IMG/VR virus record: IMGVR_UViG_3300021387_000661 | Coordinates: 128,001 to 192,000 of that record | Source of the DNA: a virus | Taxonomy: Duplodnaviria > Caudoviricetes | DNA: 64,000 nt | Reading direction: 5' to 3' (one strand) | Part shown: piece after piece, positions 1 through 47,355 of the stretch | Position numbering within the stretch: position 1 is the stretch's first letter | Layout of the letters: every line of letters begins with the position of its first letter | The notes under the pieces: generated by a model | Database searches by the model: none | What the model was told of the DNA's origin: nothing | What the model saw: only the letters and a program-made list of their open reading frames with translations | Position numbers and translations under genes: made by a program

Positions 1-912
1 ATCTCTGAAATGAAAGAGAAACCTAAATATCTTCTTCTTGAGAATGTTGATAGGATGATCATCTCACCTGCACAGCAAAGGGGTAGGGATTTTGCTCTCA
101 TCCTACAATCATTGGTCAATCTTGGGTATAATATTGAATGGAGGGTCATTAATGCTGCTGAATATGGATTTCCCCAGAAAAGAAAAAGAATATTCCTTTT
201 TGCATTTCTTACTGGAGAATTTGAAGTAAAGAGTCCAGATTCCTGGTTATATAAAGAAGGAATCCTTGCAAAAGCATTCCCAGTAAAAGAAGATATTGAA
301 ATTGGTCTTTGGGGACTTGATAGAAGAAAATTGGATTCAGACCTGGTTTATATATCAGACCATTTCAATGAGAATAATATCATAGACCACCCATTTGAAA
401 ATGCAGGAGTTGTAATAGATGGTTATATTTCTACTACAAAGGTCAAAACAGACTATTCTGGGTCATTTATGACACTGGGAGGTGTTCTTGCCCAGGGTGA
501 TGATAGAAAGCTCATTACAGAAGACTATTATCTTTCTGATGATGAGATTGAAAAGTGGAAGTATTCCAAAGGAAACAAGTCATTTGAGAGGACAAATAAA
601 GATGGATATACATACACTTACACAGAAGGTGCAATGCCTTTTCCTGACCCTCTTGATAGACCGGCAAGGACATTGATAACAAGTGAGGTATCAACAACAC
701 CAAACAGATTCACCCATATCATAAAAGACCCAGAAACTGGTAAATTAAGGCGTCTAATCCCTCTTGAACTGGAAAGGATACAGATGTTCCCAGATAACCA
801 CACAGAGGGTATTACAGACAAAAAGAGAGGGTTTCTGATGGGTAATGCACTTGTATGTGGAATTGTGGAAAGAATTGGTAAGGAATTGAAGAGTAGAATT
901 TATGATTTATAA
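1..912 (+). CDS. C5-cytosine DNA methyltransferase, 5'-truncated by the window edge; resembles Sau3AI-type (GATC) enzymes
   Basis: Motif VI ENV (LLLENVDRMIISPAQQRGRDF), VIII QKRKRIF, IX LRRLIPLELERIQMFPD, X MGNAL; frame is open to position 1. Specificity is recalled similarity only. Confidence 0.9.
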   Translation: MSEMKEKPKYLLLENVDRMIISPAQQRGRDFALILQSLVNLGYNIEWRVINAAEYGFPQKRKRIFLFAFLTGEFEVKSPDSWLYKEGILAKAFPVKEDIEIGLWGLDRRKLDSDLVYISDHFNENNIIDHPFENAGVVIDGYISTTKVKTDYSGSFMTLGGVLAQGDDRKLITEDYYLSDDEIEKWKYSKGNKSFERTNKDGYTYTYTEGAMPFPDPLDRPARTLITSEVSTTPNRFTHIIKDPETGKLRRLIPLELERIQMFPDNHTEGITDKKRGFLMGNALVCGIVERIGKELKSRIYDL

Positions 913-922
913 ATTGTGAATT

Positions 923-1252
923 ATGGCAACCTATTTAGAATATCTGTCATTTAAATCTCGTTTGCCCTGGTACAAGAAGATTCTGTTTCCTTTGTTTTTG
1001 AATAAGAAGGAATATGATGAATATATCATGATAACAACAGAGGAAAAGACTGAACTGGATAAAGCCAGGGATCATTATTTCTTCTGTTGGAATGAGTATA
1101 TGAAAAATCCCACATATCAAACAAAGGTGAGTATGGAACATGCAAGGGATATTGTCAAGATGTATTTAAGACAGGAAAATAGGTATTATGAAGATACTTA
1201 CAGGTCAAATGAAGATGTGAATTATTTATTAAGAAGAAATATATTAGTATGA
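923..1252 (+). CDS. hypothetical protein
   Basis: ORF packed between neighbours, 4-nt overlap with the next gene. Confidence 0.6.
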   Translation: MATYLEYLSFKSRLPWYKKILFPLFLNKKEYDEYIMITTEEKTELDKARDHYFFCWNEYMKNPTYQTKVSMEHARDIVKMYLRQENRYYEDTYRSNEDVNYLLRRNILV

Positions 1253-1731
1253 AAATAACAGATAAATATGTGTTCTTCTGGAAGGAAGACCCATTTTGTA
1301 ATTTCACCAGGTGTGAGATAAATTATGATGGGAATATGTTCTCATCATCAGAGCAGATGTTTATGTGGTTCAAGGCAGATTATTTTAAGGATTATGAAAC
1401 TGCTGAAAAGATTCTGAAAACAAATGACCCCGAGACTGCAAGAAAACTTGGAAGGATGGTGAAAAACTACAATGATGCAGAATGGAATAAGGCAAGAGTT
1501 TGGTATATGTATCTGGTTGTATTACAAAAGTTTATGCAGAATGAGGATTTGAGAAAAAAACTGTGTGATCCGAAGTATGATGGGAAACAGTTTGTAGAGG
1601 CTGCTTATTATGACAGGATTTGGGGAATAGGATACAATGAGAATGATGCTCTCATCACACCAGAGTATAAATGGGGAAGAAATGAACTTGGAAAGGTACT
1701 CAATAAGGTAAGAGATTTTTTAAATAGATGA
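1249..1731 (+). CDS. NADAR (YbiA / T4 gp30.3-like) family protein
   Basis: SEQMFMWFKA..F.D, ARKLGR.V, VEAA.YDRIWGIG, GRNELGK motifs. Confidence 0.9.
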   Translation: MKITDKYVFFWKEDPFCNFTRCEINYDGNMFSSSEQMFMWFKADYFKDYETAEKILKTNDPETARKLGRMVKNYNDAEWNKARVWYMYLVVLQKFMQNEDLRKKLCDPKYDGKQFVEAAYYDRIWGIGYNENDALITPEYKWGRNELGKVLNKVRDFLNR

Positions 1732-2261
1732 AAGTAACCACATTGGATGAAATAATTGAGAAGGATGTTCCGGAAGAACTCTACTTCAAGAAGAAGGACT
1801 GGGAGAAAAGGAAATATCTCAGGACTACTCTTCCTATGATGTGTACTGTTGATGGAGATGATGTCTATCTGTTTGCTGAAGGAATCAAACCTCCACAAAT
1901 CCTGAAACAGAAAAGGACAGAAGATGAGAAGTTGAGAAGACACAGGTTCGGAGACAAGGGAAAGAAGTTTGGAAAAGGTGTCTATGCTGAACCAACAGGA
2001 GATGGATATTCTAATACACTCACCACATTCTCAATGGACAACTATGTGTGGGACAGGAACTACAAAGTAAGGGAACTGACAGACAGGGAGGCATTCAGAC
2101 TGATGGATGTGGATCCAGATGATGTTCAGAAGATATTGGATGCTGTTCCATCTAAATTCAGAAAAAAACTTGCTGGGAACAGTATTGCCGTCAATGTGAT
2201 GACTGAGATATTCAGAAATTTGTTTAATGAAAGGGTAAATCCTGAAAAACCATTATTTTGA
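1728..2261 (+). CDS. stand-alone C5-MTase C-terminal subunit (TRD + motifs IX/X)
   Basis: VRELTDREAFRLM (IX), LAGNSIAVNVM (X), TRD-like SNTLTT; no motifs I-VIII. Confidence 0.85.
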   Translation: MKVTTLDEIIEKDVPEELYFKKKDWEKRKYLRTTLPMMCTVDGDDVYLFAEGIKPPQILKQKRTEDEKLRRHRFGDKGKKFGKGVYAEPTGDGYSNTLTTFSMDNYVWDRNYKVRELTDREAFRLMDVDPDDVQKILDAVPSKFRKKLAGNSIAVNVMTEIFRNLFNERVNPEKPLF

Positions 2262-2542
2262 TTATGGAAAATGCTGTTTATTTTAAATGTAGAAATTTCA
2301 ATTTAGGTAATTGGAATGATATATTAAATATTCAAAAATCTTGGCCAACAGATGAAGTTATTATATTTAATAAAGGTACAGAAAATGAATGTGAAGTGAA
2401 ATATATGACATATTCAAGGATTGATAAATATCCAATATTTAAACTCATCAAAGGTGAGAATAAAAATGTTGAATCAGGTGTATCTGGTTATATAAATGAT
2501 ACTTTGTTTGAGTGTAAAGATGTTGTTATTATTGAAGTATGA
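2258..2542 (+). CDS. hypothetical protein
   Basis: Coupled ORF in the operon. Confidence 0.55.
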   Translation: MIMENAVYFKCRNFNLGNWNDILNIQKSWPTDEVIIFNKGTENECEVKYMTYSRIDKYPIFKLIKGENKNVESGVSGYINDTLFECKDVVIIEV

Positions 2543-2772
2543 AACCAGAAGAATTAAAAAATGGACTTGTTGTTGTCCATGTAAAGCATAACAGACTTTA
2601 CATTATTGTTGAATGTAATATGATGATGAAGGATTCTGTAAATGGATGGGTTGATGCAGTAATTTACAAACCACTGTATGATAATGAATATAACTGTTTT
2701 GTCAGGGAGAAACAATCATTCTTAGATGAATTTAAAATTGTAGAACTTAAATCCTATGTTTATAAATTTTAG
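2539..2772 (+). CDS. DUF1653-like small protein
   Basis: H.K..LY.IV...AVIYKPLY....FVRE...F..EF pattern. Confidence 0.55.
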   Translation: MKPEELKNGLVVVHVKHNRLYIIVECNMMMKDSVNGWVDAVIYKPLYDNEYNCFVREKQSFLDEFKIVELKSYVYKF

Positions 2773-2799
2773 AATTTGAAACTTATATATTAAAGTAAT

Positions 2800-3291
2800 A
2801 TGAAACATTTAGTAGTAATTGCAGAAAAAGAAGAATTGAAACTTGTTGAGCAATTGGGATATAATCATTATCCTGTTCTCATTACAGGTGTTGGTGCATT
2901 GAATGTCATTGAGGCATTGAAGGATATACCAAGGGATACAGTTATCTATAATATTGGATATGCTGGTAGTAAAAACCTTGAACCTGGTAAATTTTATGCC
3001 ATTGACAGGGTTTCACTTTATCATCAGAATGTAAAGTATGATGAACCATCATATTCATTGGGTTATATTCCTTGGGCAAAAGAAGTAGAACCTGAAGAAG
3101 ATTCATATATGAGGCCTATAAAATGTCTGACAGGAACTGATTTTGTACTTGAATCAAACATTGAAGATTGTGTGTTTGATATGGAATTGGCATATATCAA
3201 GGTATTGGGGTTTGAAAATGTCATTGCATATAAGTATGTAAGTGACAATCTTGACCTCAATCAATATAGAATCAAATTCAATGAGGAATGA
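2800..3291 (+). CDS. nucleoside phosphorylase / MTA-SAH nucleosidase-like protein (PNP_UDP_1 fold)
   Basis: ITGVGALN, NIGYAGS, TGTDFV, DMELA, YVSD motifs. Confidence 0.75.
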   Translation: MKHLVVIAEKEELKLVEQLGYNHYPVLITGVGALNVIEALKDIPRDTVIYNIGYAGSKNLEPGKFYAIDRVSLYHQNVKYDEPSYSLGYIPWAKEVEPEEDSYMRPIKCLTGTDFVLESNIEDCVFDMELAYIKVLGFENVIAYKYVSDNLDLNQYRIKFNEE

Positions 3292-3619
3292 TGTCCATAT
3301 TGTGAAGGTTGGACCCCATCAGCAGGATACAGTGATGTACACTGACGGGGTCTGCCGCTGTATCTGTGTGGGTCAGCACAACAACACCAACAGTTACCTC
3401 AAAATCTTGGATAAGGGAAGAATCAGGAAGATGACCACCAAGGAGATAGGGAGACTGATGGGTGTGGATGATTCTGATATTGATAAGATGACAGGTGTCC
3501 TTGCACCTGGTGTGGTCAATTCACTCTTTGGTAATTCCATTGTGGTGGATGTGATGACAGAGATGTTCAGGGAACTTTTTTATGAAGACAGGAAATTAAG
3601 TGAAATTAAATTGTTTTAA
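3281..3619 (+). CDS. stand-alone C5-MTase C-terminal subunit (short TRD + motifs IX/X)
   Basis: Likely ATG at 3281; HQQDTVMYTDGVCRCI (TRD-like), RIRKMTTKEIGRLMG (IX), FGNSIVVDVM (X). Confidence 0.85.
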   Translation: MRNDVHIVKVGPHQQDTVMYTDGVCRCICVGQHNNTNSYLKILDKGRIRKMTTKEIGRLMGVDDSDIDKMTGVLAPGVVNSLFGNSIVVDVMTEMFRELFYEDRKLSEIKLF

Positions 3620-3621
3620 AT

Positions 3622-3798
3622 ATGTTGACACAAGAAGAAAAGAAGACAATATGCTTGTTGTTGAGAAGGGAAACTGCTTGTGGAATGATGGATGCTTCAC
3701 GGGCAATTGATGAGCTAATAAAAGCACTTAAAATGAAACCTAAATACATTATGGATGCACCACAAAACATTAAAATAACTTGGGAATATTATGACTAA
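3622..3798 (+). CDS. 58-aa protein resembling the EF-Ts N-terminal UBA-like domain (below ORF-track cutoff)
   Basis: Hand translation MLTQEEKKTICLLLRRETACGMMDASRAIDEL...; compare EF-Ts LRxxTGxGMMDCKKAL. Confidence 0.5.
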   Translation: MLTQEEKKTICLLLRRETACGMMDASRAIDELIKALKMKPKYIMDAPQNIKITWEYYD

Positions 3799-4045
3799 AG
3801 CAGAATATTTTACAAATAAATATCATTGTCATATAAGTTGTACTCCTGAAATTGATAAATGCAAGAATTGTCCTATTTTGAGAGTACTTAAAGAAATATA
3901 TGGGGAGGAAAAAGTATGACAAAAGAAGAAGCAATCAATGAATTGAGGGAATTACTTAATTATTGGAGATACATCAAGATGTATGATAATAAAAGTGAAC
4001 AGGATGCTGTTGAATTTGCAATAAACTATATGGAGGATAAAGTGT

Positions 4046-4517
4046 ATGACTAATGATGAAATAACAAGATACATCCAGGAGAAGTGGAGTAACTATTCAA
4101 GGGGACTGGCAATGTCCTTTGCATTCAGGAAAGACAAGAACTATACTTTTGAGGATGTGAAGGATGCATTCTCATCTGGTGCCTGGGAAATAATCCAGCT
4201 TTTGATTAAGAATAATATTAATAAAGAGGATTTGAAATATGAATAAAGAAACTATTGACAGACTGGTGAAACAGTACGGAGACAGATGGATGCTCAGAGA
4301 CCTTGACTTCTTCCCTGAGAAGTTGAGTGATGCTTGTAGGATATATCCTTACAAGGTTGAGACTTTTATGAAAGTGGTCACTGGTAATGGGTTTATCTCT
4401 TTTGAAACTGAAAAAGAAGCTCTTGATGCAAGTATCCAGATTTATGAGAAAGTACTTCATAAACAAGTACCATATGGTCTTCTTCACAGGTATTATCTTA
4501 CAGATTCTGAGAAATAA
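4046..4517 (+). CDS. two small hypothetical proteins (4046-4246, 4239-4517)
   Basis: Overlapping co-directional ORFs. Confidence 0.55.
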
Positions 4518-4530
4518 TTTGTTATATTTA
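4518..4530 (+). promoter_or_regulatory. recurrent early/middle promoter motif TTTGTTAT(A/C)TTTA (representative copy)
   Basis: Also at 7034, 19099, 19557, 21791, 24444, 43432, 44495, 50338, 51363, each just upstream of a + strand start codon. Confidence 0.8.
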
Positions 4531-4534
4531 TAGT

Positions 4535-4756
4535 ATGAAGAAGTACTACAGGATCAGGAAGATGACACCCAGGGAATGTTATAGATTAATGGGTGTGGAG
4601 GATACAGACACAGATAAATTATTTGAAACAGATTTGAAAGACTCAAATCACTATAAACTTGCAGGTAATTCTATTGTTGTGGATTGTATGGTTCATATGT
4701 TTGACAAGTTGTTCTTTAACAGGAATGAACCTAAAAAGAAAATTACATTATGGTAA
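4535..4756 (+). CDS. minimal C5-MTase C-terminal subunit (motifs IX/X only, no TRD)
   Basis: YRIRKMTPRECYRLMG, YKLAGNSIVVDCM. Confidence 0.88.
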   Translation: MKKYYRIRKMTPRECYRLMGVEDTDTDKLFETDLKDSNHYKLAGNSIVVDCMVHMFDKLFFNRNEPKKKITLW

Positions 4757-5487
4757 AGAAATATACAAAAGAAAACCCATTGAGAGTGTTCACAGCATTC
4801 TCTGGTTATGATTCCCAGTGTTTGGCACTCAACAGACTGGGGATTGATTATGATTTGGTTGGTTGGTCAGAGATAGACCCTGCTGCCATCAAGGCACATA
4901 ATGCTCTGTTCCCACAGTATGCTGATAGGAATTATGGTGACATCTCCAAGATTGACTGGTCGCAAGTTCCTGATTTTGACCTGTTTACTTACAGCTTTCC
5001 TTGCACGGATCTGTCAAATGCTGGAAGACAGGCTGGATTTGATGAAGGTTCTGGTACCAGGTCATCACTTCTTTGGGAGTGTAGAAAAGCAATATCAGTA
5101 AAGAGACCTAAATATATGATGCTTGAAAATGTGAAGGCTCTTCTTTCAGATAAATTTGTTGATCTTTTTAAAAAATGGTGTGAAGAACTTGAATCATATG
5201 GTTATGTGAACTATTATGATATTCTCAATTCAAAAGATTTTGGTGTGCCTCAATCCAGAGAAAGGGTATTTGTGATCTCCATTCTCAAGACTGAAGATGA
5301 ACCAGAACCTTATTATGAGTTCCCAAGACCAATTCCACTCAAGAAGACAGTTGAAGACTTGTTGGAAGATAATGTTCCTGAAAAGTATTATATGAAGCAG
5401 GAGGTCACTGACAGATATGTTCAGACTATGAGTGTAGAACATTCAAAGGATGAGAGTGTTGAACAGCCAGATGAAGAACTATGGTAA
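4750..5487 (+). CDS. C5-MTase catalytic N-terminal subunit (motifs I-VIII)
   Basis: FSGYDS (I), SEID (II), GDISKI (III), SFPCTDLS (IV), ENV (VI), QSRERVF (VIII); ends before TRD and IX/X. Confidence 0.92.
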   Translation: MVKKYTKENPLRVFTAFSGYDSQCLALNRLGIDYDLVGWSEIDPAAIKAHNALFPQYADRNYGDISKIDWSQVPDFDLFTYSFPCTDLSNAGRQAGFDEGSGTRSSLLWECRKAISVKRPKYMMLENVKALLSDKFVDLFKKWCEELESYGYVNYYDILNSKDFGVPQSRERVFVISILKTEDEPEPYYEFPRPIPLKKTVEDLLEDNVPEKYYMKQEVTDRYVQTMSVEHSKDESVEQPDEELW

Positions 5488-5882
5488 AGAATTATAGTAA
5501 CCTCACTCTTGAAGAAATAGAATCCAAGATTGAGAAGAATGATGATATATTACATAAAATCTGGGATTCTGATGGTGGTGATTCCTGGGAAAAGTACAAG
5601 GTAAAGTGTCAGCCTTACTGGGATGATAATGAAGCACTTTATGCAGCAAAATCATTAAAAGAAACCCCGGAAATGAGTCCATTCAGTGATTTGGACAGGA
5701 AGTGTTTGATGACAATAGATAAATTTAAAGCTTATTGTGAATTTGGAGCTATTATGGACTCTGATGGTTTTGGGTATTATGCCACTGATAAGGAAGTGTC
5801 CAATATTGAGGCCAGTCCAAGAGCATTTGAAAAGGGAATTATCAGACCAGATTTTACACATATTTGTTGGTATAATAAGTGA
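5481..5882 (+). CDS. hypothetical phage protein
   Basis: Coupled ORF; DSDGFGYYA...THICWYNK. Confidence 0.6.
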   Translation: MVKNYSNLTLEEIESKIEKNDDILHKIWDSDGGDSWEKYKVKCQPYWDDNEALYAAKSLKETPEMSPFSDLDRKCLMTIDKFKAYCEFGAIMDSDGFGYYATDKEVSNIEASPRAFEKGIIRPDFTHICWYNK

Positions 5883-5883
5883 T

Positions 5884-6225
5884 ATGAATAAGAAAGCAAT
5901 AAATACCTGTGAGGACGGAACTTGCAGAACCATTGTTGCCTGGTATGCCAAAGGCGGACGAAGTAATTTCGCAGCTTGGAATGGACCAGACAGGTTTTTA
6001 ATGACAGCAGTCCTTGAAGAATATGACCCATTTGAGTGTATGGAACTTAAAGAAAGATATATAGTTGACCACCAGGGATATGGCCAGGCAAATCCAAAGC
6101 CAGGGTCTCATATGGTCATTTCATCCAGTAAGGATGTATGTACTACTTTAACTACCTTCTGTGGTCTAAACAAAGCAGTAGTTGAGGTTTATGAAGATGA
6201 TGAAAATTCAGATAGTGATAAATAA
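5884..6225 (+). CDS. putative stand-alone MTase target-recognition-domain (TRD) protein
   Basis: ATG at 5884; two TRD-like units (INTCEDGTCRTIVAWYAK...TAVLE and SKDVCTTLTT...AVVE) like the variable regions of C5-MTases; no catalytic motifs. Confidence 0.55.
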   Translation: MNKKAINTCEDGTCRTIVAWYAKGGRSNFAAWNGPDRFLMTAVLEEYDPFECMELKERYIVDHQGYGQANPKPGSHMVISSSKDVCTTLTTFCGLNKAVVEVYEDDENSDSDK

Positions 6226-6255
6226 ATTTGTTATTATTAAGAATTTATAATTAAA

Positions 6256-7011
6256 TTGATTATGGAAACTGAAAAGAAAGTATCAAGGAACTCTGAAATA
6301 TTCAGGGATGTACTGGAAAGTAAGGGTCTGACATATGCAGATGTATATAGAATCCTCAATTGTGCCGGGATAACTAAATATAATTATATCTTGGATAAGG
6401 ATGGTAATTTTATTGAACAGGAGAATGAAAAATATCTTGGTAAGAGGAGTTTTCATAGTGCTGATGATGGTGCAAGAACACCATTTGAATGTAAAGTGGA
6501 CTGTGTAGTTGGTAATATCCAGGAAGATTTGTTTTGTCTTGATAATAGGGATTTTACTCCAAATTCTGAAGCAACAAACATAAATGTGAAATCAGATAGT
6601 GGGATTACGACAGAAAAACTTGATCTCATTCATAAACCTACTGGTGCCGAGGTTGAATTAAAGACCAGTAGATGTATGGAAATAAATGAGAAATATAATA
6701 CTGTTATATACAAACATCGTGATGCGAAGTTCGCAGAATATTTGAGGAAAGGACACATTATGATTGTTGATTTTCCATATCTTAAAAAAGTTGCGGTCTT
6801 TGATTATAGGAACTTCAAGGATAAGGAAAGGGGAATTTTCAAGGGATCTGTCAATGTCATTAAACCAGATTGGGTTGATGATTGGGGAAAGCATTGGGAC
6901 ATTGTATCGATATGGTCTGGGTTGCTGATTGATTATGATATGATGAAAGGAGGTAATTATAAAATAAGCGATAAGGTTTCATATTTGGTAAATAGTAAAG
7001 GAGTCAAGTAA
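6256..7011 (+). CDS. putative PD-(D/E)xK nuclease
   Basis: KLDLIHKPTGAEVELKTS fits D-Xn-E-x-K; locally richer in CpG than flanks. Confidence 0.45.
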   Translation: MIMETEKKVSRNSEIFRDVLESKGLTYADVYRILNCAGITKYNYILDKDGNFIEQENEKYLGKRSFHSADDGARTPFECKVDCVVGNIQEDLFCLDNRDFTPNSEATNINVKSDSGITTEKLDLIHKPTGAEVELKTSRCMEINEKYNTVIYKHRDAKFAEYLRKGHIMIVDFPYLKKVAVFDYRNFKDKERGIFKGSVNVIKPDWVDDWGKHWDIVSIWSGLLIDYDMMKGGNYKISDKVSYLVNSKGVK

Positions 7012-7074
7012 TTGACTTCTTTTTTTTTAAGATTTTGTTATCTTTATACCATAAGAAACTATAATAAGTTAAAT

Positions 7075-7230
7075 ATGGGTTCAAACAAATTGATAACTGT
7101 TGTTATCCCAAGTGATGAAGAAATTGAAAGACTGAAGGAACTGGGTATTGATATAGAATCACATCTTGTCAGGGTGTTCGTTGATGAATTACATAACAGG
7201 TTACATCCTGGAGATAAAATACAAAAATAG
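7075..7230 (+). CDS. 51-aa protein, paralogue of 22878-23033
   Basis: ATG 7075 follows promoter motif at 7034; MGSNKLITVVIPSDEEIERLKELGIDIESHLVRVFVDELHNRLHPGDK. Confidence 0.75.
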   Translation: MGSNKLITVVIPSDEEIERLKELGIDIESHLVRVFVDELHNRLHPGDKIQK

Positions 7231-7236
7231 TTAGAT

Positions 7237-8401
7237 ATGAAATTGTATATTTTATTGGTGTCTGAATATTCTGGTCCTGCATTTGCATATAATGATAGTC
7301 CCTTGATATTCACTGATGAATCAAAAGTGAACAAGAAAAAGGATGAGATTGATTCTGATATAGACAAGACAGTTTATATGTATAGTGAAGATGTTGATTG
7401 TAGTCCTGGTGATTTGATATATGTCATTTCAGTAGGTCAGTATGTGGATGATGAATATATAAACAAGGAAGTTAAATTCTTCAAGACTATAGATGATGCT
7501 TATGAATATATCAAAACAGTAAAGAATACTGAAAATTATAAATTTTTATACACATCCGAATATTTTGTAAGATGAAGATATTATTGACCAATTCAATGGC
7601 AGATGAACTGCTGTATAATGAAGACCAGATAAAGAATCAGATCGGTGCATACAGACCTCATTATGACCTGGTTACAAAGAGTTATCTACCTGTCATCAAG
7701 TGTTGGCCACTTGAAGATTTCAAAGGTAAATTTAACCAGGAAAGAGAAGTTATTCCAGGAATGGAGAATGAGGTTGCAGACATTGCTCTGGCAACCATGC
7801 AGGATGATATTATTGAATATAAGGTGAGTCCTGTCATTTGGAAGAAAGGAACTCTTGATAACTACAACATCCTGATATATACTCCAAAATTTGATAACAA
7901 GACCATACTCATCACTTCTCCTAACCAGAAAGATTTCTTTGATAAGTTGAAGGAATATCAGATTGTATCAGATACTGACCTTGAAGAGAGGAACAGACAA
8001 AGAATAGCCTGGGATCCATTCATTATTAACAATATTGACAAGTGGTTCTCAAAGTACCAGGGTATTTGCACTTATATCTATCTTATTGGAGATGGTATTG
8101 CAGCTACCGGGAAATGGGACAATAAAAAGGAATGGTAGTTATGGGTTACAGAGTACCAGAAGAATATATAAACAGGAGAGATGTTCAACTACACTTCTAT
8201 TGGCCATATAATAGTATAGAAATTGAACTTTCAAAGAATATCAAGGATGTAATTGCTACTTGGCCAAAAAATAAGCAGAGAAATATTCTGTCTGATATAA
8301 AGACCTCTGTTGAGTATGCCTGTCTATTTGAACAGGCTACACATGATACTTTTGAACAGGGGTATTATCAGATTTTTACTACATTGAGACAAGTTTATTA
8401 G
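7237..8401 (+). CDS. three hypothetical proteins (7237-7575, 7572-8138, 8132-8401)
   Basis: Tightly coupled ORFs with genome-typical codon use. Confidence 0.6.
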
Positions 8402-32379: not shown

Positions 32380-35300
32380 TTATTGATTAGAATCAAGATT
32401 TTCATTACTAAAACCAGTTTTTGTTAAACCATAACCATCATAAAATGATATATTACCCCCAAAAGAAATTATATCTTCATCAACTAAAGATAAATCAGGT
32501 TGATTATAATTATAAAAATTCATAGATTCAATAATATTTTTAACTTTAGTTTCTATATCTGATTGTAATTCACCAAAAGGTGAAAAATTATTTATACTTA
32601 TAGATGGAATATAAATTTTAAATTCAATCCATAACATAATTGATTTAAGATATGGATTATTCTCATATGTTGCATGTCTTACGGTGATTTTATTATCATT
32701 ATGTTCAATATAAGAACCATATAATTCATACCTACAATCGAGATATAATTTACTTATAGAATTGGAGACAGTTTTTCCTCCATTACTTATTTCAAATATT
32801 GGATAATAATTAATATGTAATTTTTTATATGAATTCTCAATTTGTACACCACTTTCAAATGGAAGTTTATTTTCAAGGTTTGTACAAATATATGGATTTG
32901 AACCATTTAACCAAATTTCATCATTTTTTGCAACAATTGCTTTAAATAAGTTATAAACATTGTTAACATTCCAATCATTATTAGAAGGATTTACATATTC
33001 TTTTTCATAAAATCTTCCACAAGTAAAGTTAGATTTAGGTAATGCATTAGAAAATCTGGTACATGATGCCTTGGTAATCACTGTTTGCTGACCAGCATTA
33101 TTACCTACATCACCAGAATTCACATCATCTTGTTGTGCAAAAGCACAAGTTGGATTAATATAAATTAAATCTGTATTATTACCTGTATAAGATATCAAGT
33201 TATGAGATTTTAATAACCCAAGATTTGTTGACTTTTCATCATCAGTTTCTCCAAGATTGAATACATTAATTCTATACAGATTTGTAAGTTCTGTGGTCAT
33301 AATTGATGGTTTATAGAAAATACGACAGCTATAATTATTACCTGATGCCCCCAATGTCTTAGTATAGACTTGATTATTTTGGCTTGAACCGTTATAAGTA
33401 TAAATTAATATTGGACATACAAATACCCATCTCATATTTGATGTAGATGCATTATTAATAATATCAGATCGTTTTATCCATGTTGCTGGATTTAATACAT
33501 ATGCTTCACCATTATACATCATAGTTAGAGTAGGAACATAAAACATCTTATTTGGAAATGCAGAATTGTAATCAGCAGAACCATTAAGATTTTCATATTC
33601 ATTAAGAATTTCAAAATATATTGCATTGTTAATTGTAATGTCTGGAGCAGCATCTCCAGATACTTCCTCTTCAGACGTTAATGTACCATTAACAGTAATT
33701 CCAAAGGAACTATTATTAATACTTGTTCTTTTGGTTATTGTTCCAGAATATTGGCTAAAACTTCCATTTGTAAAATCTGCTTCAACCATTGTAGATTCTG
33801 CTATAAGTTTATCTGTTGTAATTTCACCACTTATTACAGCACCAGATGCATATAATACACCATTTTCATCAAGTCTAGTCACACCATTCTTTGATCTTAA
33901 TGTAATATTACCTGTAAGTGAAAGTCCATTATTATCAAGATTAAAATAATCTGACTTTATTCCAATCTCATTTGCATTCATATAAATGGATGTACCACTT
34001 GATGTTGCCTGTTGGACAAATACAGCATGTTTATCCTCCACACTTGTAATAATAGATGTACAAGCAATACCATTACTTACACTCTGGGAAATGGATGACA
34101 TTTCTTTTGTGATAGGGATGAGGTAGTCCTTCTCTGAATCAAGCATCAATCCATAATCATCAGCGCCTAAATAATCTTTTAAAACAGATTTATTGCTTCC
34201 ATACCTTTCATTGATGGAGTGTGCTCTATATCTTATGGTTTCATTTGATTTAGATGTAGGTGTACCATTGCTGTAAGATACTTTAACTTTATCAATTATA
34301 TATGTTGAAGGAAAGTTTGCAGTACCAGTTGGATTATATCCTATCTGTCTTGTTATACCATCACTAAGTGTAGTAATATTAAGCTTATTAACATAATTAT
34401 CAGTACTACTTATCCCTATTTTATTAACTGTTGTAAATGAATATGAAGTATCTATAGATTCTATTGAATTAAAGTCAAATGTTATATAAAATTGGAAATA
34501 TAGATACTTTTCTGTGGTTATTTTATCTGATGAATCATTTATATCTTTTATTGTTATTAATCGTTCTTCATAACTTGATATAGATAATCTCTTCGTACCA
34601 GATTTATCAATCCAAGAATATAATTGATATGTTTTCCATTCACCATCTATATCTTGTTTATATCTGATATACATATTTACTTTTGAATTATCTGTGGAAA
34701 ATTCTATATCAGCAGAGTAGTTTATTTTAATTTCATCTTTTAATGAATTTACATACATACAATATACACTATCATATATTTCAGATGTATTTGGATAATC
34801 TTCTGTAAAATTACCACACTGAAATTCTCTATTAGTATTATCATTAGAATCTGTAAAATTAAATTTAGAAGTATCTTTATTTAATCTTACAAATTTATCT
34901 TTAAATAATACATCAGAATTACCAATAAAAGTATGAGTCCAATTTGTTGGAGAAGTACTATTATTACAATCTCTATTTAATTTATATGAGAATTTATATG
35001 TATTAGATACATATGGTCTACTATCAAAATGTGATAAAATATAATAATAATCACCTGAATTGTGTATATTCACAGATGTAGGTAATTTTGTTATATCTTT
35101 CTGTCCATTACAATATTTCATAATATCTTCTACAGATATACCATATTCAGGTATGATATATACAGGATAATTTGGATCTCCAGGGGTGACTGATAATGTT
35201 CCATAATTTGGTTCACTCTTTTCTATGAGAAGATATCCTTCTTCATCTCTTAAATTATTGACATTTGCAACAACCCTATCCATAGAGGCAAAATTATCCT

Positions 35301-38300
35301 TAACATCTGCCTTGAATGTGTCCATTGCTGTAGAAATACTACCTTCAAGGTCTGTTGATGTAACATAATTTGATAAACTTCCATTTATTGCATCTAAAGA
35401 GGTATTAACAGAATTAAATTTAGAAGTAGTTGTATTCATATAGTCAGAGAATGTATGAATTTTCCCATCACTACTAACACTAACACCAGCAATTACAGTT
35501 GTAATTGCATTTCCTAAATTATCTGTTTGAATATATCCACTTAATAAAGAAGATGCAATACCAGAACATTGCAGCACTCCATTGCCATCAAAATATCCAC
35601 TTAAAGTATTGAGTCTGTTAAAATCAGTACTCAAATAATTTTTTACATTCGTTGCAATAGTTGATGTCTGATTAGTTATTGCACTATTAACAGCAGTTGA
35701 CATATCAGATGTATCAAAATACCTTGCTATGGTAATAGGGTCAGACCAAGACCCCCAACTACCATTAGTATCAGTTGTCCTTTCAGATCTCCATTCATAT
35801 TGATATGTGGAATCTGCACCCCCAGCAATGGTTGAACCATATACATTTGAAGTAGTATCACCATATCTAACTGTAAATACAGGATTATCTGAATGTAAAT
35901 TGTCATCGGGAGTATTAGATATATAACAATATGTAGCACCTTCATATCTTATATACTTATACTCATATCCCTTACCAGCAGGACCTCTCTTACCATCTTG
36001 ACCCTCTCGGATAACATATATAGTTTCCCTGTCAACAACAGTTTCCTTACCATTCTCATCATTATTATCAGCATCTACAGCAACAGTAACAGTTAGCTTA
36101 TCACCAATACTGAGGTTTGATGTTGAATAACTGAAACTACCACTTGTATATGGAGTTGAAGATTCATCATTCTTTGCAACAGAAAGTACAAATGGATCTG
36201 TTGATGATGCTGTGGAATATTCTGTTGTCATTGAACCAGTTTTTTCAAGAACTGTGAAAGTCAAATTTGGTGGGACACATTGATTATTTTGATTAAAGAG
36301 AACAGCACTGACAGATGGAATAATGGAATAAACAGATGGAAGTGTTATACCCATAAGTTTATAAGATGCCATAGCTGTAATGTCATCATTATTCTTTGTT
36401 TTTTCTAATGCAGTAACCACAAATCTTAAGTTTATTGGTTCTGATGATAATGTTGTAGGTTCATTAGAATCTAATCCATAAAGATTTATTTCTATATGAA
36501 TACTATCAACACCATTTTCTAAATCTGAAAAATCATAGTTTCCAGTTTCATTTTCATCATAGGAACTGGCATTTGTTTCTTCATTATTTTGAGAATAATA
36601 TACAGTAATATTACCACTATATGAATCTTCACCACTAATTTCACATTTTTTAATTTTTATAGGTGCACCACCTTTATACAATTTGAGATTTATGTGAAGT
36701 GTTTGGTCAGATAATAATACACCTGCTTCATTAACTTGAACTGTATCCATTTCATTATCCAATTCAAGATAAACAGCATCTGCACCTAAATCATATACAC
36801 CAATAACAAGAGGTGTAGTCCAAGTGTCAAGATTGTTGTCTGCATATGTTTTATAACTTATATTCCAAAGATACTTATATTCTGGAGTTAATTTAGGTAC
36901 TTCTGTAAATTCATCTATCCAATAAGTTATACCGGCAATATCACCAGCACCTGGGTTTTCTTTTATTTCAGGAGTTCCATGACCACCTTCTCCATTCATA
37001 TGTGGTGCAACATCACCACTTGTATGAATAATATAATAATCCTTAACATCCTTAATACCTTTATCCCAAACAGCAAGATAATGAGGGTCAAGTATCTTTT
37101 TCTTACCAGTGGAATATGTTATTACTTCTCTATTAAAAAGATATGGATTATCTTTATCCCATTCATCTTTATCAGTTTTCCAATAATCATTCCATCCATT
37201 TGGTAGGTTATTCTCTAACTCATTATATGATGTGGTGAATAAAAGATCATCAGGACTTATAGATGTATCTACATGGAAGTATTCATCAACCTGTTCAATT
37301 GCATTTGCATATACCTGCCAAAGTCTGGCAACACCACAATTGTCTGAATCTGCATCATATGTCTTTTTATCAACACCCATAAACTTTGTCCAAGTTTGAT
37401 TGGACTTATTAAATTTTCTCCAACACATCCAGACATATTTCTTTTCTGGTGTTGGTTCAATAGGTTCATCACTCCATCCATATCTGACATTATTTTCATC
37501 CTCACTTGTTGGAATAGCATCATCTTTCCTGTCTTCTTCGACTGATGTATTAGGTACATATGGAGGTTGATTATCAGGAGTTGCTTTAAATATATATTCC
37601 AAACCATGCCCATCCTGACCTTTAAAGAGTGACCAAATCCAACCTTTTTCAGTTGTACTATCACCACTTGCTGTATAATTTGCATTATCTAAATTGGCAC
37701 TATGATCTGTACCATCATCAAGATACATGAATGTACCTATCCATTCTGCTGAAGGAATATCAATATCATCTTCAACAAACTCACGGGAACTTGGAGTACC
37801 ATTGGCATATTTTATTACAAGAATCCATCTGCTACCTTCTGGTCCCTGTAATTCACCGACATCCTGCCAAGAATCACCATCCCAAAGAATCAAGTGTTTG
37901 TTCTGAGAAGTGTAACAATCACCTTCTTCCTGTTTGTTGTCATATATAGTTTTATCTGTATTGTTGAAATCATGCCAAGCGCCATTCTCATCATATTTCC
38001 ACATATAAAGCTTACCATCTGGATTTTCACCCCAATAATCATTATATGTTTCTCTTAATGATTTAGGATATACAATTAAAAGTCCATTTTTAGATGGTAA
38101 TTCAGATGCAAATTTTTCTTCAATATATGTTTGCTTTGCATTTGAAGCAGTAGTATAATTATATACTGTCTCATCACTATCAAAATAAACTTCATATATG
38201 ATTTTACCCTTTACATTAATGGATGTTCCTGGGTCACCCTTTTCACCTTGTTCACCCTTTATCCTCTTTATTACCCAGTTAGACCATTCACCATTCTTTA

Positions 38301-43464: not shown

Positions 43465-44451
43465 ATGGTATCAGTAAATTTAGAATATAACCCAGATTTT
43501 TTAAATGAAGAAGAAAGATGTGAGTATATCATTTCCAAAACTATGAAAAAACTTTGGCTGATTCAATTGGATATGGTCAATAAATTCATACAAGTATGTG
43601 ATAAATATAATCTTAAATATTGGGCTGAAGGAGGAACACTTCTAGGTGCGGTAAGACATGGTGGTTATGTACCCTGGGATGATGATATTGATCTCCTTAT
43701 GATGAGGGAAGATTATATGAAATTTCTTTCAGTTGCGGATAAAGAATTTGATTATCCTTATTATATCAATACTGGATACACAACACCATCTGGTCTTTTC
43801 ACTAAAATAAGAAGGCTTGATACAATAAGATATAAATCAATAATGGGTGTCATTCCCACACCAGAGAAGAAGGTAGTGGTTATGTTTCCTCCAGGAATCT
43901 GCATAGATATATTCTGTGCGGATAATTGCCCGAACACACATAATGAAAGAGTAGAATTTCACAGTAAACTTGAATTATCATATAGTGCATATTCCAATGC
44001 AAAGAATGTGTATAAAAGTGAATACCACAATTCATACAGACCTGAACAGGAACTTTTGGAATTGAAAAACAGAATGATTGATAAGTTGAATTCATATAAT
44101 GAACTCTGTCAGTCATATAATGATAAAGATACAGATTATATATTCAACAATGCATTTCCTCACCGTAATATAGAATCTGGACATATGAGGTATAAGGAAG
44201 ATTATGAGGATTGTGTTTACCTTCCATTTGAGATGCTTACATTAAGATGCCCAAAGGGATATGAAAGAGTTCTTGATATGGCATATACTCAAAGAACCAA
44301 GATTCCTTGGCAAACATATGCAAAGAACTTGGCATATCATGATCAATCAGGAACTCCTTTTCTTGATTTTGATAATTCATTCACAAAATATACAATTCCA
44401 TTTTATGATAAACCAGAAGACCTGGAAAAAATCCCGGTCAAATGGATTTAA
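43465..44451 (+). CDS. licD: LicD-family nucleotidyl/phosphotransferase
   Basis: GGTLLGAVRHGGYVPWDDDIDL, IDIF, PFE...PKGYE.VL...Y. Confidence 0.88.
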   Translation: MVSVNLEYNPDFLNEEERCEYIISKTMKKLWLIQLDMVNKFIQVCDKYNLKYWAEGGTLLGAVRHGGYVPWDDDIDLLMMREDYMKFLSVADKEFDYPYYINTGYTTPSGLFTKIRRLDTIRYKSIMGVIPTPEKKVVVMFPPGICIDIFCADNCPNTHNERVEFHSKLELSYSAYSNAKNVYKSEYHNSYRPEQELLELKNRMIDKLNSYNELCQSYNDKDTDYIFNNAFPHRNIESGHMRYKEDYEDCVYLPFEMLTLRCPKGYERVLDMAYTQRTKIPWQTYAKNLAYHDQSGTPFLDFDNSFTKYTIPFYDKPEDLEKIPVKWI

Positions 44452-44485: not shown

Positions 44486-44526
44486 GTTGATGGTTTTGTT
44501 ATATTTACTATGTTAAATAGTGTGAT

Positions 44527-46371
44527 ATGGAGAAATATACAATAGAAAATCCCTTGAGAGTATTCACCACCTTTTCAGGATATGATTCACAGTGTCTTGC
44601 CTTGAAGAAAGCGGGTATTCCATTTGATTTGATAGGTTGGAGTGAGATTGAGAAGAGGGCGATAGAAGCTCACAATCTTATTTTCCCAGAATACAAAGAT
44701 AGGAATTATGGTGACATCTGTAAGATAGATTGGGAGAATGTACCTGATTTTGACTTCTTTACTTACAGCAGTCCTTGTTTTGTTGCAGGTACATTGATAC
44801 AGACAAAACAAGGTATTAAGAACATTGAAGATATTAAAGAAGGAGATGAAGTATTGACACATACAAATACTTATCATAAAGTTATTACACCCATGGATAA
44901 AGTATTTGCTGGTACATTATATCATATTAAATCTGCAAATGGTGAAGTAGTATGTACACCTGAACATCCATTTTATGTGAGAGAATTATCTTACAAATAT
45001 GTTGATAGAAAACATAATAAGGTAAGACAGTTTGGTAATCCTATGTGGAAACAGGCAAAGGATTTGTCTAAAAAGGATTATCTTGGAACACCTGTAAATC
45101 AGGAAGCAATAATTCCTGAATGGAATGGTGTTGAATTATATAACTGGGGACACAATAGAGTTAGTAATAAATTGTCAAGTCTTTTTACTAATAAAAGTTT
45201 CTGGTATCTTATGGGTAGATATGTTGGTGATGGATGGACAAATAAAACTATATACAAACCAACTGGAGAAATTAAATCAAGAGGTATAAAAATTTGTTGT
45301 AGTAAAAAGAAAGAAGAAGAAAAACTTTCTCTAATTAAAGCATTTGAAGATTGTGGTTTGAATTATTGTATAACCAATGAGAGAACTGTATATAAATTTC
45401 AAATTACATCTAAAGAAATCTGGGAATTTGTTCAAAGATATGGAAGTAAAGCAGATGGAAAATTTATTGATCAAAGTACAATAAATCTCCCCATTGAATA
45501 TCTTGAATCATTTATTAAGGGTTATCAAGACAGTGATGGATATTATCATAAGAAGAGTAATACATATGGTGTAACAACTGTAAGTAAGAAACTTGCATAT
45601 ACATTTGGGCAGTGTATAAATAAAGTTTATCATAGGGCAGTTAGAATTCAATATTGTAAATTACCTCCAACACATATTATTGAAGGTCGTACTGTTAATC
45701 AAAAGAGTTTTTATCAAGTTAGATATAAACTTGAAAACACAAAACAAGATCAATCATTTTATGAAGGTGGATATATTTGGGCACCAGTAAATACCCATAA
45801 AACAGGTATAACAACAGAACAAGTTGAGTCTTGTATTGTATATAATATGGAAGTTGATGAAGATAATTCATATGTTGCCAATAATTATATAGTACACAAT
45901 TGCCAATCATTCAGTCTGGCAGGAAAGATGCTTGGTGGTGAGGAAGGTTCTGGTACCAAGTCATCATTACTTTGGGAATGTAAGAAAGCAATTGATATCA
46001 AAAGACCCAAGTACTTGATGTTGGAGAATGTGAAGAATCTTGTATCAGAGAGGTTCATAGACACCTTCAACCTCTGGTTGAAATATCTTGAATCCAGGGG
46101 TTATACCAATTACTGGAAGGTGTTGAAAGGTTCTGATTTTGGTATTCCCCAGGACCGTGAAAGGGTGTTCTGTGTATCTATCTTGAACCCAGACGGTGAC
46201 TTTGTGTTCCCAAGGGGGTGGAAGTTGGATAAGAATACTCTTGACTTCATACAGACCAAGGAAGAGATTGGTCAGGAACTGTGGGACAAGTTGGTGGATC
46301 CTGATGAAAACATAGATATATATCTTGGAGACAATGAACAATTCAAAAAATTTGCAGGAGTACAGAAATGA
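44527..46371 (+). CDS. C5-MTase catalytic N-terminal subunit (motifs I-VIII) interrupted by an intein
   Basis: Paralogue of 4750-5487; FSGYDS, YSSP|intein|CQSFS, ENV, QDRERVF; no IX/X. Confidence 0.92.
   Translation: MEKYTIENPLRVFTTFSGYDSQCLALKKAGIPFDLIGWSEIEKRAIEAHNLIFPEYKDRNYGDICKIDWENVPDFDFFTYSSPCFVAGTLIQTKQGIKNIEDIKEGDEVLTHTNTYHKVITPMDKVFAGTLYHIKSANGEVVCTPEHPFYVRELSYKYVDRKHNKVRQFGNPMWKQAKDLSKKDYLGTPVNQEAIIPEWNGVELYNWGHNRVSNKLSSLFTNKSFWYLMGRYVGDGWTNKTIYKPTGEIKSRGIKICCSKKKEEEKLSLIKAFEDCGLNYCITNERTVYKFQITSKEIWEFVQRYGSKADGKFIDQSTINLPIEYLESFIKGYQDSDGYYHKKSNTYGVTTVSKKLAYTFGQCINKVYHRAVRIQYCKLPPTHIIEGRTVNQKSFYQVRYKLENTKQDQSFYEGGYIWAPVNTHKTGITTEQVESCIVYNMEVDEDNSYVANNYIVHNCQSFSLAGKMLGGEEGSGTKSSLLWECKKAIDIKRPKYLMLENVKNLVSERFIDTFNLWLKYLESRGYTNYWKVLKGSDFGIPQDRERVFCVSILNPDGDFVFPRGWKLDKNTLDFIQTKEEIGQELWDKLVDPDENIDIYLGDNEQFKKFAGVQK
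44776..45900 (+). mobile_element. 375-aa intein with LAGLIDADG homing endonuclease
   Basis: Starts CFVAGTLI, block B CTPEHPF, YLMGRYVGDG and FIKGYQDSDG, ends VYNMEV...YIVHN before Cys+1. Confidence 0.95.
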
Positions 46372-46835
46372 GTAAAATAAAAGATGAAAAAAAGGTAAAG
46401 GGTAAGCAGTCCAACTATGTCAATACCAATGTAAAGGAGTTTGACACAGATATGTGGGGAGAATACAATCTGTTTGGTGAGAGGATAGAGGACACAGTTC
46501 CTGAAAAGTTCCCTCATCTGGTACAGTTAGGAAATCTCCATATTGACAGGACTGGGTTCTATAATCCCCAGGATACTAGGGTGTATTCCCCTATGGGTAC
46601 TTGTCCTACACTCACATTGTCATTTAGTCCAAGGTTCTTGTTTATTGATGAAGGTAAATATAAAGTCAGGAGACTGTCTGGATTTGAGTCTATGAGGATG
46701 ATGGGTGTGGAAGATGAAGATATTCAGAAACTGGTTGATGGGGGACTCAGTAATAATCAATTGGCACAACTTGCCGGCAACAGTATTGTTGTGGATGTAA
46801 TGTCAGAATTTTTCAAGGAAATGATTAAACATTAA
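46368..46835 (+). CDS. C5-MTase C-terminal subunit (TRD + motifs IX/X)
   Basis: QDTRVYSPMGTCPTLT, VRRLSGFESMRMMG, LAGNSIVVDVM; ATGA overlap with the catalytic subunit. Confidence 0.88.
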   Translation: MSKIKDEKKVKGKQSNYVNTNVKEFDTDMWGEYNLFGERIEDTVPEKFPHLVQLGNLHIDRTGFYNPQDTRVYSPMGTCPTLTLSFSPRFLFIDEGKYKVRRLSGFESMRMMGVEDEDIQKLVDGGLSNNQLAQLAGNSIVVDVMSEFFKEMIKH

Positions 46836-46839
46836 TATT

Positions 46840-47355
46840 ATGGATGTAGTTTATTTTTCAGTGAACAATTGGTTCAGTGGTGAGAATTATCCACCTACTG
46901 AAAACTTCAAGAAATGGTTGAGTGATGACTTCAACCAGAGTTTTAGGAATGATGAGTGGTGTAAGGAGAACAAACTGTGTGTTTATTATGGTTGTGTTGA
47001 TATGAGTACTAATTATACCATATCTGCTCCTAGGGAATGGGTTGAGAAGAACTGTCCTGAACTTCTGACAGATGATGAGTACACATACATCACACAACAA
47101 AGTAAATATAAAAAGAAGTTGTTTGGTGGGTATGAAACAATCTGGGTAGATGTAGAACACAAGAAGAAATACTCTGATTTTGTCTATTCCCAGGAAGATG
47201 TTGATGAAGGAGAATGTGACAGGGTTGGAGATATGCCTTTCAGAGAGTATTGTGAGGAGAATTTTGGGTCTAAATATTATGAGACTAACTGGTGGGGAGA
47301 TGATGATGAGGATGATGAGGACTCTGATGAAGATGATGAAGAAGTAGATGGATAA
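46840..47355 (+). CDS. hypothetical protein with acidic tail
   Basis: ORF track. Confidence 0.65.
   Translation: MDVVYFSVNNWFSGENYPPTENFKKWLSDDFNQSFRNDEWCKENKLCVYYGCVDMSTNYTISAPREWVEKNCPELLTDDEYTYITQQSKYKKKLFGGYETIWVDVEHKKKYSDFVYSQEDVDEGECDRVGDMPFREYCEENFGSKYYETNWWGDDDEDDEDSDEDDEEVDG

Follow-up and report, generated by a model that had tools for sequence, protein, structure and literature searches.

Split C5-cytosine methyltransferase genes of a giant phage point to modular multi-subunit enzymes with a detached target recognition protein

C5-cytosine DNA methyltransferases (C5-MTases) are textbook monomers, and to our knowledge multispecificity among them is known only where all target recognition domains (TRDs) lie in one chain. 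Here we describe a group of phage C5-MTase genes in which the catalytic motifs I-VIII, the closing motifs IX-X and TRDs are distributed over separate open reading frames (ORFs). They lie in a 64,000-nucleotide stretch of DNA (the window), which represents bases 128001-192000 of the IMG/VR virus record IMGVR_UViG_3300021387_000661 (344,746 bases, CheckV completeness 94%). Several described systems come close to this arrangement. The multispecific C5-MTases of Bacillus phages carry several short TRDs on one core in one polypeptide, each TRD with its own target, and this protects against several restriction systems. Titles on such enzymes (M.SPRI, M.Phi3TI, M.Rho11sI, M.H2I and M.phiBssHII) are listed in PMC8936443. 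Natural two-chain C5-MTases are known as well, namely M.AquI and M.EcoHK31I. As outlined in PMC3404938, M.AquI (Karreman & de Waard 1990; Pinarbasi et al. 2002) consists of an alpha chain with motifs I-VIII plus a portion of the variable region and of a beta chain with the remaining variable region and motifs IX-X, encoded by adjacent genes, and the large chain of M.EcoHK31I (Lee, Kam & Shaw 1995) contains motifs I-VIII, the TRD and motif X, only motif IX being separate. The circularly permuted C5-MTases M.BssHII, M.Alw26I, M2.Eco31I, M.Esp3I and M2.BsaI each consist of one chain in which the permutation falls within the variable region, and most have the order TRD-IX-X-I..VIII (PMC5944983). 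Finally, complementation in E. coli is known between detached N- and C-terminal fragments of monomeric C5-MTases (PMC3404938).

We identified the pieces by ORF listing and by searches with the Pfam model PF00145 (C5-cytosine DNA methyltransferase). Exactly seven PF00145 matches are found in the 345-kb genome: two catalytic halves with motifs I-VIII (N1 and N2), four closing halves with motifs IX-X (C1 to C4) and one complete enzyme. The same seven pieces are present in a related genome, G002. With 19.7 bits, C4 falls just below the 22-bit cut-off of the model, and its motifs are visible by eye. All pieces that an earlier note on this DNA had named from its sequence were borne out by these searches, including the separate closing halves, of which C1, C2 and C4 have a TRD and C3 has none; the complete C5-MTase gene ending at position 912 is absent from its inventory. 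Two of its entries had to be amended. N1 and N2 indeed both contain motifs I-VIII, but N2 is not simply long, as it harbors a 375-residue intein that had been overlooked. A TRD-like ORF at 5884-6225 (T) is free of catalytic motifs as described, but it consists of two TRD modules in tandem. The features of the first island are as follows.

1..912, plus strand: 3' part of a complete single-chain C5-MTase (PF00145, E 5.3e-30 in the window)
1728..2261, plus strand: C1, closing half of 177 amino acids with its own TRD and motifs IX-X, C-terminal ..PLF (PF00145 positions 258-323)
3281..3619, plus strand: C2, closing half of 112 amino acids with a short TRD and motifs IX-X, C-terminal ..KLF (PF00145 positions 266-322)
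4520..4530, plus strand: promoter-like motif TGTTATATTTA before C3, recognized by its repeat count in the window
4535..4756, plus strand: C3, 73 amino acids, motifs IX-X only, without TRD, C-terminal ..TLW (PF00145 positions 271-322, E 1.1e-9)
4750..5487, plus strand: N1, catalytic half of 245 amino acids with motifs I-VIII, C-terminal ..ELW (PF00145 positions 6-225, E 1.6e-51)
5481..5882, plus strand: inserted ORF of 133 amino acids (PHROG 14149, function unknown), not part of the enzyme
5884..6039, plus strand: module A of T, TRD module with core GTCRTIVAWYAKGG and tail AVLEEY, identified by hidden Markov model (HMM) homology to in-chain TRDs
6040..6225, plus strand: module B of T, TRD module with core VCTTLTT and tail AVVEVYEDD, found singly as 56-65-residue proteins elsewhere

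The gene for the complete enzyme starts about 330 nucleotides before the window, and the whole gene matches PF00145 positions 2-323. N1 aligns to residues 12-199 of M.HhaI and contains FPC (motif IV, residues 83-85), ENV (motif VI, 126-128) and QSRER (motif VIII, 168-172), all of which are invariant in 22 relatives; its motif I reads FSGYDSQ, a variant kept across the family. Motif IX (R.LT.RE..RLMG) and motif X (GNS) are present, on the separate chains C1-C4. C1 aligns to M.MpeI residues 313-389, with the TL motif included, and C3 is located upstream of N1, its presumed catalytic partner. T has neither a Pfam nor a PHROG family.

We consider it probable that the phage encodes a set of multi-subunit C5-MTases, built from these separate genes in several combinations. 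This modular reading, already advanced in the earlier note, is supported by conservation, by selection, by TRD homology, by the fused and atomized forms found in relatives and by one controlled structural model. On their own N1 and N2 would be unable to work, because they are devoid of motif X, which completes the S-adenosylmethionine (SAM) pocket, and of the small domain formed by motif IX and the TRD. N2, with its intein spliced out, would pair with the coupled C4 to form an M.AquI-like two-chain enzyme. N1 would pair with C3, which contributes motifs IX-X only, and the separate protein T would bring the DNA-reading TRD; that C3 and N1 suffice for activity is unlikely, since neither chain has a TRD. 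In this assembly, a T module would add its terminal beta-strand (AVVEVY or AVLEEY) onto the strand preceding motif IX of C3, and its T-[LIV] recognition loop would reach the catalytic cleft. As T has two modules, the N1+C3 core would have two specificities. C1 and C2, which combine a TRD with motifs IX-X, may act as alternative closing subunits for one catalytic half, most likely N1, each creating a further specificity. Together with the complete enzyme, the kit could methylate several motifs and thus shield the phage DNA from several host restriction systems, a role that, like the enzyme activity itself, we infer.

We compared this arrangement to the systems outlined above. N2 and C4 have exactly the layout of M.AquI, with adjacent genes for an alpha chain (motifs I-VIII) and a beta chain (distal variable region and motifs IX-X). 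In contrast to M.AquI, however, the phage has four beta-type for two alpha-type chains, C3 is without a TRD, which is found on a third chain, and the alpha-type chain N2 contains an intein. The presumed requirement for separate polypeptides is reminiscent of M.EcoHK31I, which needs two, one of them very small, but here motifs IX and X travel together and it is the TRD that is separate. Motifs IX-X precede motifs I-VIII in the circular permutants, as they do in the C3-then-N1 gene order and in fused relatives (L042, L018 and L059); unlike in the permutants, the TRD here follows motif VIII on its own chain, and the fused relatives have no in-chain TRD. TRD modules of the T kind do occur in tandem in cis in two metagenomic sequences (P0018 and L060), as in the Bacillus phage enzymes, whereas in our phage and in hundreds of metagenomic clusters a module or module pair forms its own gene. 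The split versions of M.BspRI/M.BsuRI, M.HhaI and M.SssI are two-piece laboratory constructs (PMC3404938, PMC5944983), whereas the present split is natural, conserved, in three pieces and with putative alternative partners. An analogy can be drawn to HsdS of Type I restriction-modification systems, where a separate specificity subunit directs a catalytic methylase and a TRD swap alters specificity; HsdS has an unrelated fold and serves N6-adenine methylases, and no homology is claimed. Two single-chain interpretations were rejected. A circularly permuted chain of the M.BssHII type does not apply to C3-N1, as the two genes are in different frames, overlap by 7 nucleotides and have the TRD downstream, and a multispecific chain of the M.SPRI type does not apply because the TRDs sit on C1, C2, C4 and T, the tandem pair in T being without a catalytic motif. 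A hypermodification route found no support either, as the genome contains no Tet/JBP gene.

We next turn to the conservation of the split genes. The window has a G+C content of ~33%, and for positions 1-8000 no DNA match and no near relative were found among 50,697 GenBank phage records. Scanning IMG/VR with N1 yielded 47 loci, five of which (L001, L002, L003/L045 and L039) belong to related giant phages with the same island. The gene order in the island is complete enzyme, C1, a gene resembling methylthioadenosine/S-adenosylhomocysteine nucleosidases (MTANs), C2, C3, N1 and T, each as a separate ORF; the MTAN-like gene was not found in the island of L039. The same split points are conserved in L001, L002, L003/L045 and L039 and in the genomes G001 and G002. 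The earlier note had considered that the fragments might evolve neutrally or be pieces of a gene that is intact in close relatives. Instead, the splits are retained in these relatives, and the ratio of nonsynonymous to synonymous substitution rates (dN/dS, by the Nei-Gojobori method) is 0.02-0.23 for the pieces, with a dS of 0.4-2.5. C1 shows 81-92% identity in four relatives (dN/dS 0.05-0.10) and C2 72-92% (0.07-0.20), with values of 0.08-0.23 for C3 and 0.09-0.13 for N1. The complete enzyme has a dN/dS of 0.07-0.12, and the values for the pieces are just as low.

As the earlier note had described, several start codons overlap the preceding stop, suggesting putative translational coupling: ATGA overlaps are found at 1728 and at 46368 and ATGGTAA overlaps at 4750 and at 5481, and the ATG of C2 at 3281 sits within the 3' end of the preceding gene. 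A stop/start overlap (..LW stop / MVK..) is common to the C3/N1 and the N1/ORF 5481-5882 junctions, with a similar one at the N1/T junction in L002 and L003. In L001 and L002, C3 and N1 are 1-1.4 kb apart. The inserted ORF 5481-5882 occurs only in the window and in L001, and T directly follows N1 in L002 and L003. N1 is exactly flanked by a 17-nucleotide direct repeat, TATGGTAAAGAA(A/T)TATA, at 4749-4765 and 5480-5496, which may be a trace of how this ORF was inserted.

The nature of T became apparent from its relatives. A search of T against 1.84 billion representative proteins returned just 18 matches, mostly proteins of 56-65 residues. These match one half of T, the first or the second, and T thus represents two modules of about 55 residues. 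Common to both modules are a core that contains a T-[LIV] dipeptide and, ahead of acidic residues, a tail V(L/V)E(E/V)Y. In one metagenomic match, P0018 (415 amino acids), there are four such modules in tandem, each starting with Met (MKEQ../MKDQ..), followed by motifs IX-X; judged from its sequence, it looks as if stand-alone mini-genes had been fused through loss of their stop codons. With an HMM of module A, this module was also located within single-chain enzymes, where it lies in cis after motif VIII and before motif IX, at residues 264-315 in L009/L011 and 195-241 in L010 (domain E 1e-15 to 1e-18); the HMM also matches many stand-alone ORFs of 45-70 residues. Module A and the in-chain TRD of these single-chain MTases are homologous, and T is thus a genuine TRD detached from its enzyme.

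Free-standing modules of this type are widespread. Ordinary single chains of 347-704 amino acids account for 23 of the 47 loci, and catalytic and closing halves are separate in another 14. Between the halves, 2-6 mini-TRD ORFs are found in L004, L005, L024, L025, L032, L037, L046 and L047; one further contig (L007) ends after a catalytic half and a single mini-TRD. In four loci (L013, L016, L018 and L042) C3 and N1 are fused in frame into a protein of 287-335 amino acids without a TRD (287 in L042 and L018), and the same fusion exists in L059. ORFs of 45-130 residues encoding TRD modules lie beside these fusions, on one or both sides in L013, L016 and L042, the short L018 locus being the exception. 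A profile of the module retrieves 324 clusters of proteins with 23-130 residues, none of which has a Pfam family and whose sole name is 'hypothetical protein'. Three distant profile matches on 64-77-kb contigs were inspected, and all three sit between a PF00145 catalytic half of 233-242 residues and a closing half of 92-232 residues, with 3-8 small ORFs around them. Searching genome contigs with a single module gave four loci, and prophage-like copies were found in metagenome-assembled genomes of Prevotellaceae and of Bacteroidales (the latter in permuted order) and in a Clostridium genome. T and a common mini-TRD have no protein match among the 50,697 GenBank phage records, where most N1 homologues belong to the single-chain or the plain two-chain type, for example in Javan172. 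A full-text search of the literature found no paper on a free-standing TRD subunit of a C5-MTase. Among the 47 loci, we also noted that a frameshift near residue 75 breaks the catalytic half in L043 and L044 (5938-6922), and some split forms in metagenomes may thus be defective or assembly errors.

The earlier note had proposed a three-chain enzyme made of the products of 4535, 4750 and 5884, with complex modelling as a check. We modelled N1+C3+T with T as the scored partner, and the complex passed its controls. The interface score ipSAE is 0.77 (0.77, 0.79 and 0.76 in individual runs) compared to 0.13 for the best of three controls; 58 of 80 solved complexes attain the mark applied, as do 2 of 110 mismatched pairs, counts that provide only a rough guide here, as the alignments were our own and the job had three chains. 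At least 81% of the contacts are shared between runs, and the predicted local distance difference test (pLDDT) score of the partner is at least 57. In the model, the tail of module B (T residues 98-103, AVVEVY) pairs with residues 4-10 of C3 (YYRIRKM), the strand just before motif IX, and T residues 85-88 (VCTT) touch N1 residues 167-169 in motif VIII. N1 residues 197-230 also form part of the interface. T may thus dock onto N1+C3 as modelled, and a three-chain enzyme is further supported by the TRD-less C3-N1 fusions flanked by mini-TRD genes, by the homology of module A and by the widespread mini-TRD arrays.

Which catalytic half C1 and C2 may serve is suggested by two further lines of evidence. 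Given four closing and two catalytic halves, at least one catalytic half serves several partners if all closing halves are MTase subunits; C4 is coupled to N2. In addition, N1, C1, C2 and C3 share an invariant C-terminal L[FW], which follows a variable hydrophilic linker, in all four or five relatives (2247-2261, 3605-3619, 4742-4756 and 5473-5487 in the window). This ending is present in only 4 of the 77 window genes, where 0.35 would be expected, and is missing from N2, C4, T and the complete enzyme, which groups C1 and C2 with N1. We infer that N1 is shared by C1 and C2. In single-chain and closing-half relatives the terminus reads ..QLSLF, ..QLTLF or ..QLKLF, which resembles the bacterial beta-clamp-binding motif QL[SD]LF. 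A search of the genome for a clamp partner with one model each for the beta-clamp (PF02768) and the gp45 clamp (PF09116) gave no match.

Several observations speak against the proposed set of multi-subunit enzymes or qualify the support for it. The start of C1, LDEIIEKDVPEELYF, duplicates the tail of N1, VEDLLEDNVPEKYYM, and C1 and N1 are thus not cut at complementary points. C1 directly follows the complete enzyme in L002 and L039, where it overlaps the end of that gene, and is not found beside N1. In the complex model the confidence for T is moderate (pLDDT 57-61), and module B docks while module A does not. The model may also pass its controls since the three chains jointly resemble the solved monomeric C5-MTases M.HhaI and M.MpeI; the result demonstrates that threading the chains as a single enzyme is feasible, not that they bind each other. 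The positions of C1 and of C2, which follows the MTAN-like gene and likewise does not adjoin N1, and the repetition in C1 of a segment after motif VIII that N1 already has, would be compatible with an alternative in which only the fixed neighbor sets N2+C4 and C3+N1+T are enzymes and in which C1 and C2 have another role, for instance as sequence-specific DNA binders, decoys, regulators or partners of a host catalytic half. We regard this as unlikely, because motif IX and the GNS of motif X, for which structural and SAM-pocket roles inside a C5-MTase are known, are retained in C1 and C2, because these two are the most conserved pieces within the island (dN/dS 0.05-0.20), and because they have the terminal L[FW] in common with N1 and C3, but not with N2 and C4.

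Alternatively, the small TRD genes and extra closing halves could be silent cassettes that are recombined into an expressed gene, in the style of a shufflon or of phase-variable hsdS. Here, the conserved module ends (MKK..IN.. starts and ..EIYEDD tails) would be usable as recombination points, the direct repeat flanks N1, and P0018 resembles in-frame fused mini-genes, each module having a Met start. Every piece, however, has its own ATG and stop codon, several overlap the prior stop as in translational coupling, and the gene order is identical in five relatives. Long or inverted repeats were not found, paralogous stretches reaching at most 48 nucleotides at 74-85% identity, and no recombinase gene was noticed beside the island; we thus give silent cassettes only a slim chance. 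It is still less probable that introns, split-intein trans-splicing or programmed frameshifting join the pieces into single chains. Inteins do occur in this gene family, but Hint or intein matches are missing from the termini of N1, C1-C4 and T, a search for Rfam introns and other RNA families (gathering score for the whole window, E<=1 for positions 1-7500) gave nothing, and neither island contains a homopolymer run of G or C that reaches 7 nucleotides. Unrelated ORFs moreover lie between the pieces, both in the window and in relatives, and the order IX-X, I-VIII, TRD would give no canonical chain. Fragmented MTase genes are common in genomes, with L043 and L044 as examples of real breaks, and the pieces could in principle be decaying, functionless remnants of duplicated MTase genes. 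This view, to which we attach next to no weight, is contradicted by the selection analysis with its low dN/dS at high dS, by ORF boundaries that are the same in five genomes and by the intact motifs. Taken together, conserved splits, low dN/dS and the absence of introns, repeats and homopolymer switches exclude decay and render post-transcriptional joining unlikely.

Returning to the modular enzymes, a wider reading seems to us slightly better than an even bet: many phages would have a new class of C5-MTase, in which a TRD-less core (motifs I-VIII and IX-X on two chains or on one permuted chain) is programmed in trans by free-standing TRD proteins of ~55 residues via beta-strand addition near motif IX, with specificities gained, lost and shuffled per mini-gene and, in the present phage family, with the whole TRD-IX-X subunits C1 and C2 also competing for the same catalytic half. 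If true, the DNA-reading module would be a separate 55-residue protein, and specificities could be gained or lost per mini-gene, allowing phages to keep pace with varied restriction. It would also define a large unannotated protein family (the 324 clusters) and offer a plug-in design for programmable cytosine methylation, for which split MTases are already used (PMC3404938).

The second catalytic half and its closing partner are located about the following features.

44497..44507, plus strand: promoter-like motif TGTTATATTTA before N2, recognized by its repeat count in the window
44527..46371, plus strand: N2, second catalytic half, precursor of 614 amino acids whose exteins (239 amino acids) carry motifs I-VIII (PF00145 in two stretches, E 1.8e-40)
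44776..45900, plus strand: intein of 375 amino acids with a LAGLIDADG domain (Hint_2, Intein_splicing, LAGLIDADG_3)
46368..46835, plus strand: C4, closing half of 155 amino acids with TRD and motifs IX-X (PF00145 positions 270-324)

By its sequence, 44776-45900 is an intein with a homing endonuclease, and splicing is predicted. It represents N2 residues 84-458 and interrupts motif IV, separating the Pro from the catalytic Cys, with Hint_2 at 34.4 bits (cut-off 28.4), Intein_splicing at E 1.2e-8 and 35.4 bits (cut-off 35.8) and LAGLIDADG_3 at E 5.5e-4. From its boundaries (YSSP/CFVAG...IVHN/CQSF; C84...HN458/C459) it follows that the catalytic Cys occupies position +1 relative to the intein. 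When residues 84-458 are removed, N2 is 92% identical to its intein-less orthologue in G002 with a seamless YSSPCQSF junction, and it displays the same catalytic motif features as N1. Identity of the exteins to orthologues without an intein is 92-96%, and their dN/dS is ~0.05; the value for C4 is 0.03-0.06. N2 and C4 overlap by ATGA, and their split is kept in G001 and G002, with an unrelated 128-residue ORF intervening in G001. Homologous LAGLIDADG inteins occupy the same motif IV site in N2, in the N1 orthologue of L039 (4666-6474) and in the complete-enzyme orthologue of G001 (L050, minus strand 3549-1159), and all three end in ..HN/C. A survey that reports inteins for the N6/N4 MTases of mycobacteriophages lists none in C5-MTases (PMC5050341). 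The use of one site in three paralogous C5-MTase genes looks like homing between paralogues, and we rate an intein placed on the catalytic cysteine in three such genes as a clear example of it.

The promoter-like motif that the earlier note had placed before 4535 is TGTTATATTTA, at 4520. It is found in 10 exact copies on the plus strand of the window, and 17 copies with at most one mismatch compare with 6.3 expected; plus-strand positions include 4520, 17406, 19101, 19559, 21793, 24446, 43434, 44497 and 50340. In all three cases checked it lies 15-30 nucleotides upstream of a start codon, and it is a candidate phage promoter element.

Among the genes neighboring the C5-MTase pieces, one may be linked to their chemistry.

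2800..3291, plus strand: compact gene of 163 amino acids resembling MTANs (AlphaFold2 model, pLDDT 70.7; Foldseek)

Its similarity was detected by fold search only: MTANs rank first among the Foldseek matches (4qfb, E 2.9e-6, template modelling score 0.64) with PNP_UDP_1 as the Atlas lead, and Pfam and PDB sequence searches were empty. The gene is conserved in L001-L003. The modelled MTAN-like fold fits the removal of S-adenosylhomocysteine, the product inhibitor of MTases, and the gene might thus serve to clear this inhibitory product within the island. Between the complete enzyme and C1 we found a NADAR gene at 1249-1731 (PF08719, E 2e-39), without a match in L001, L002, L003 and L039, and an ORF at 923-1252, which has a homologue in L001 and is absent from L002 and L039. 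The island is closed by an ORF at 6256-7011 (251 amino acids) that is conserved in a few metagenomic clusters; its AlphaFold2 model (pLDDT 65) gives only weak PD-(D/E)XK-type matches (SPARDA nuclease, DpnI, Hjc) with E 0.014 or weaker. N2 and C4 are flanked by a Dam-type N6-adenine MTase gene at 47348-47836 (PF05869) and a LicD-family gene at 43465-44451 (PF04991). A 3533-residue ORF with repeated segments is located on the minus strand at 32380-42981 and probably encodes a virion or fiber protein.

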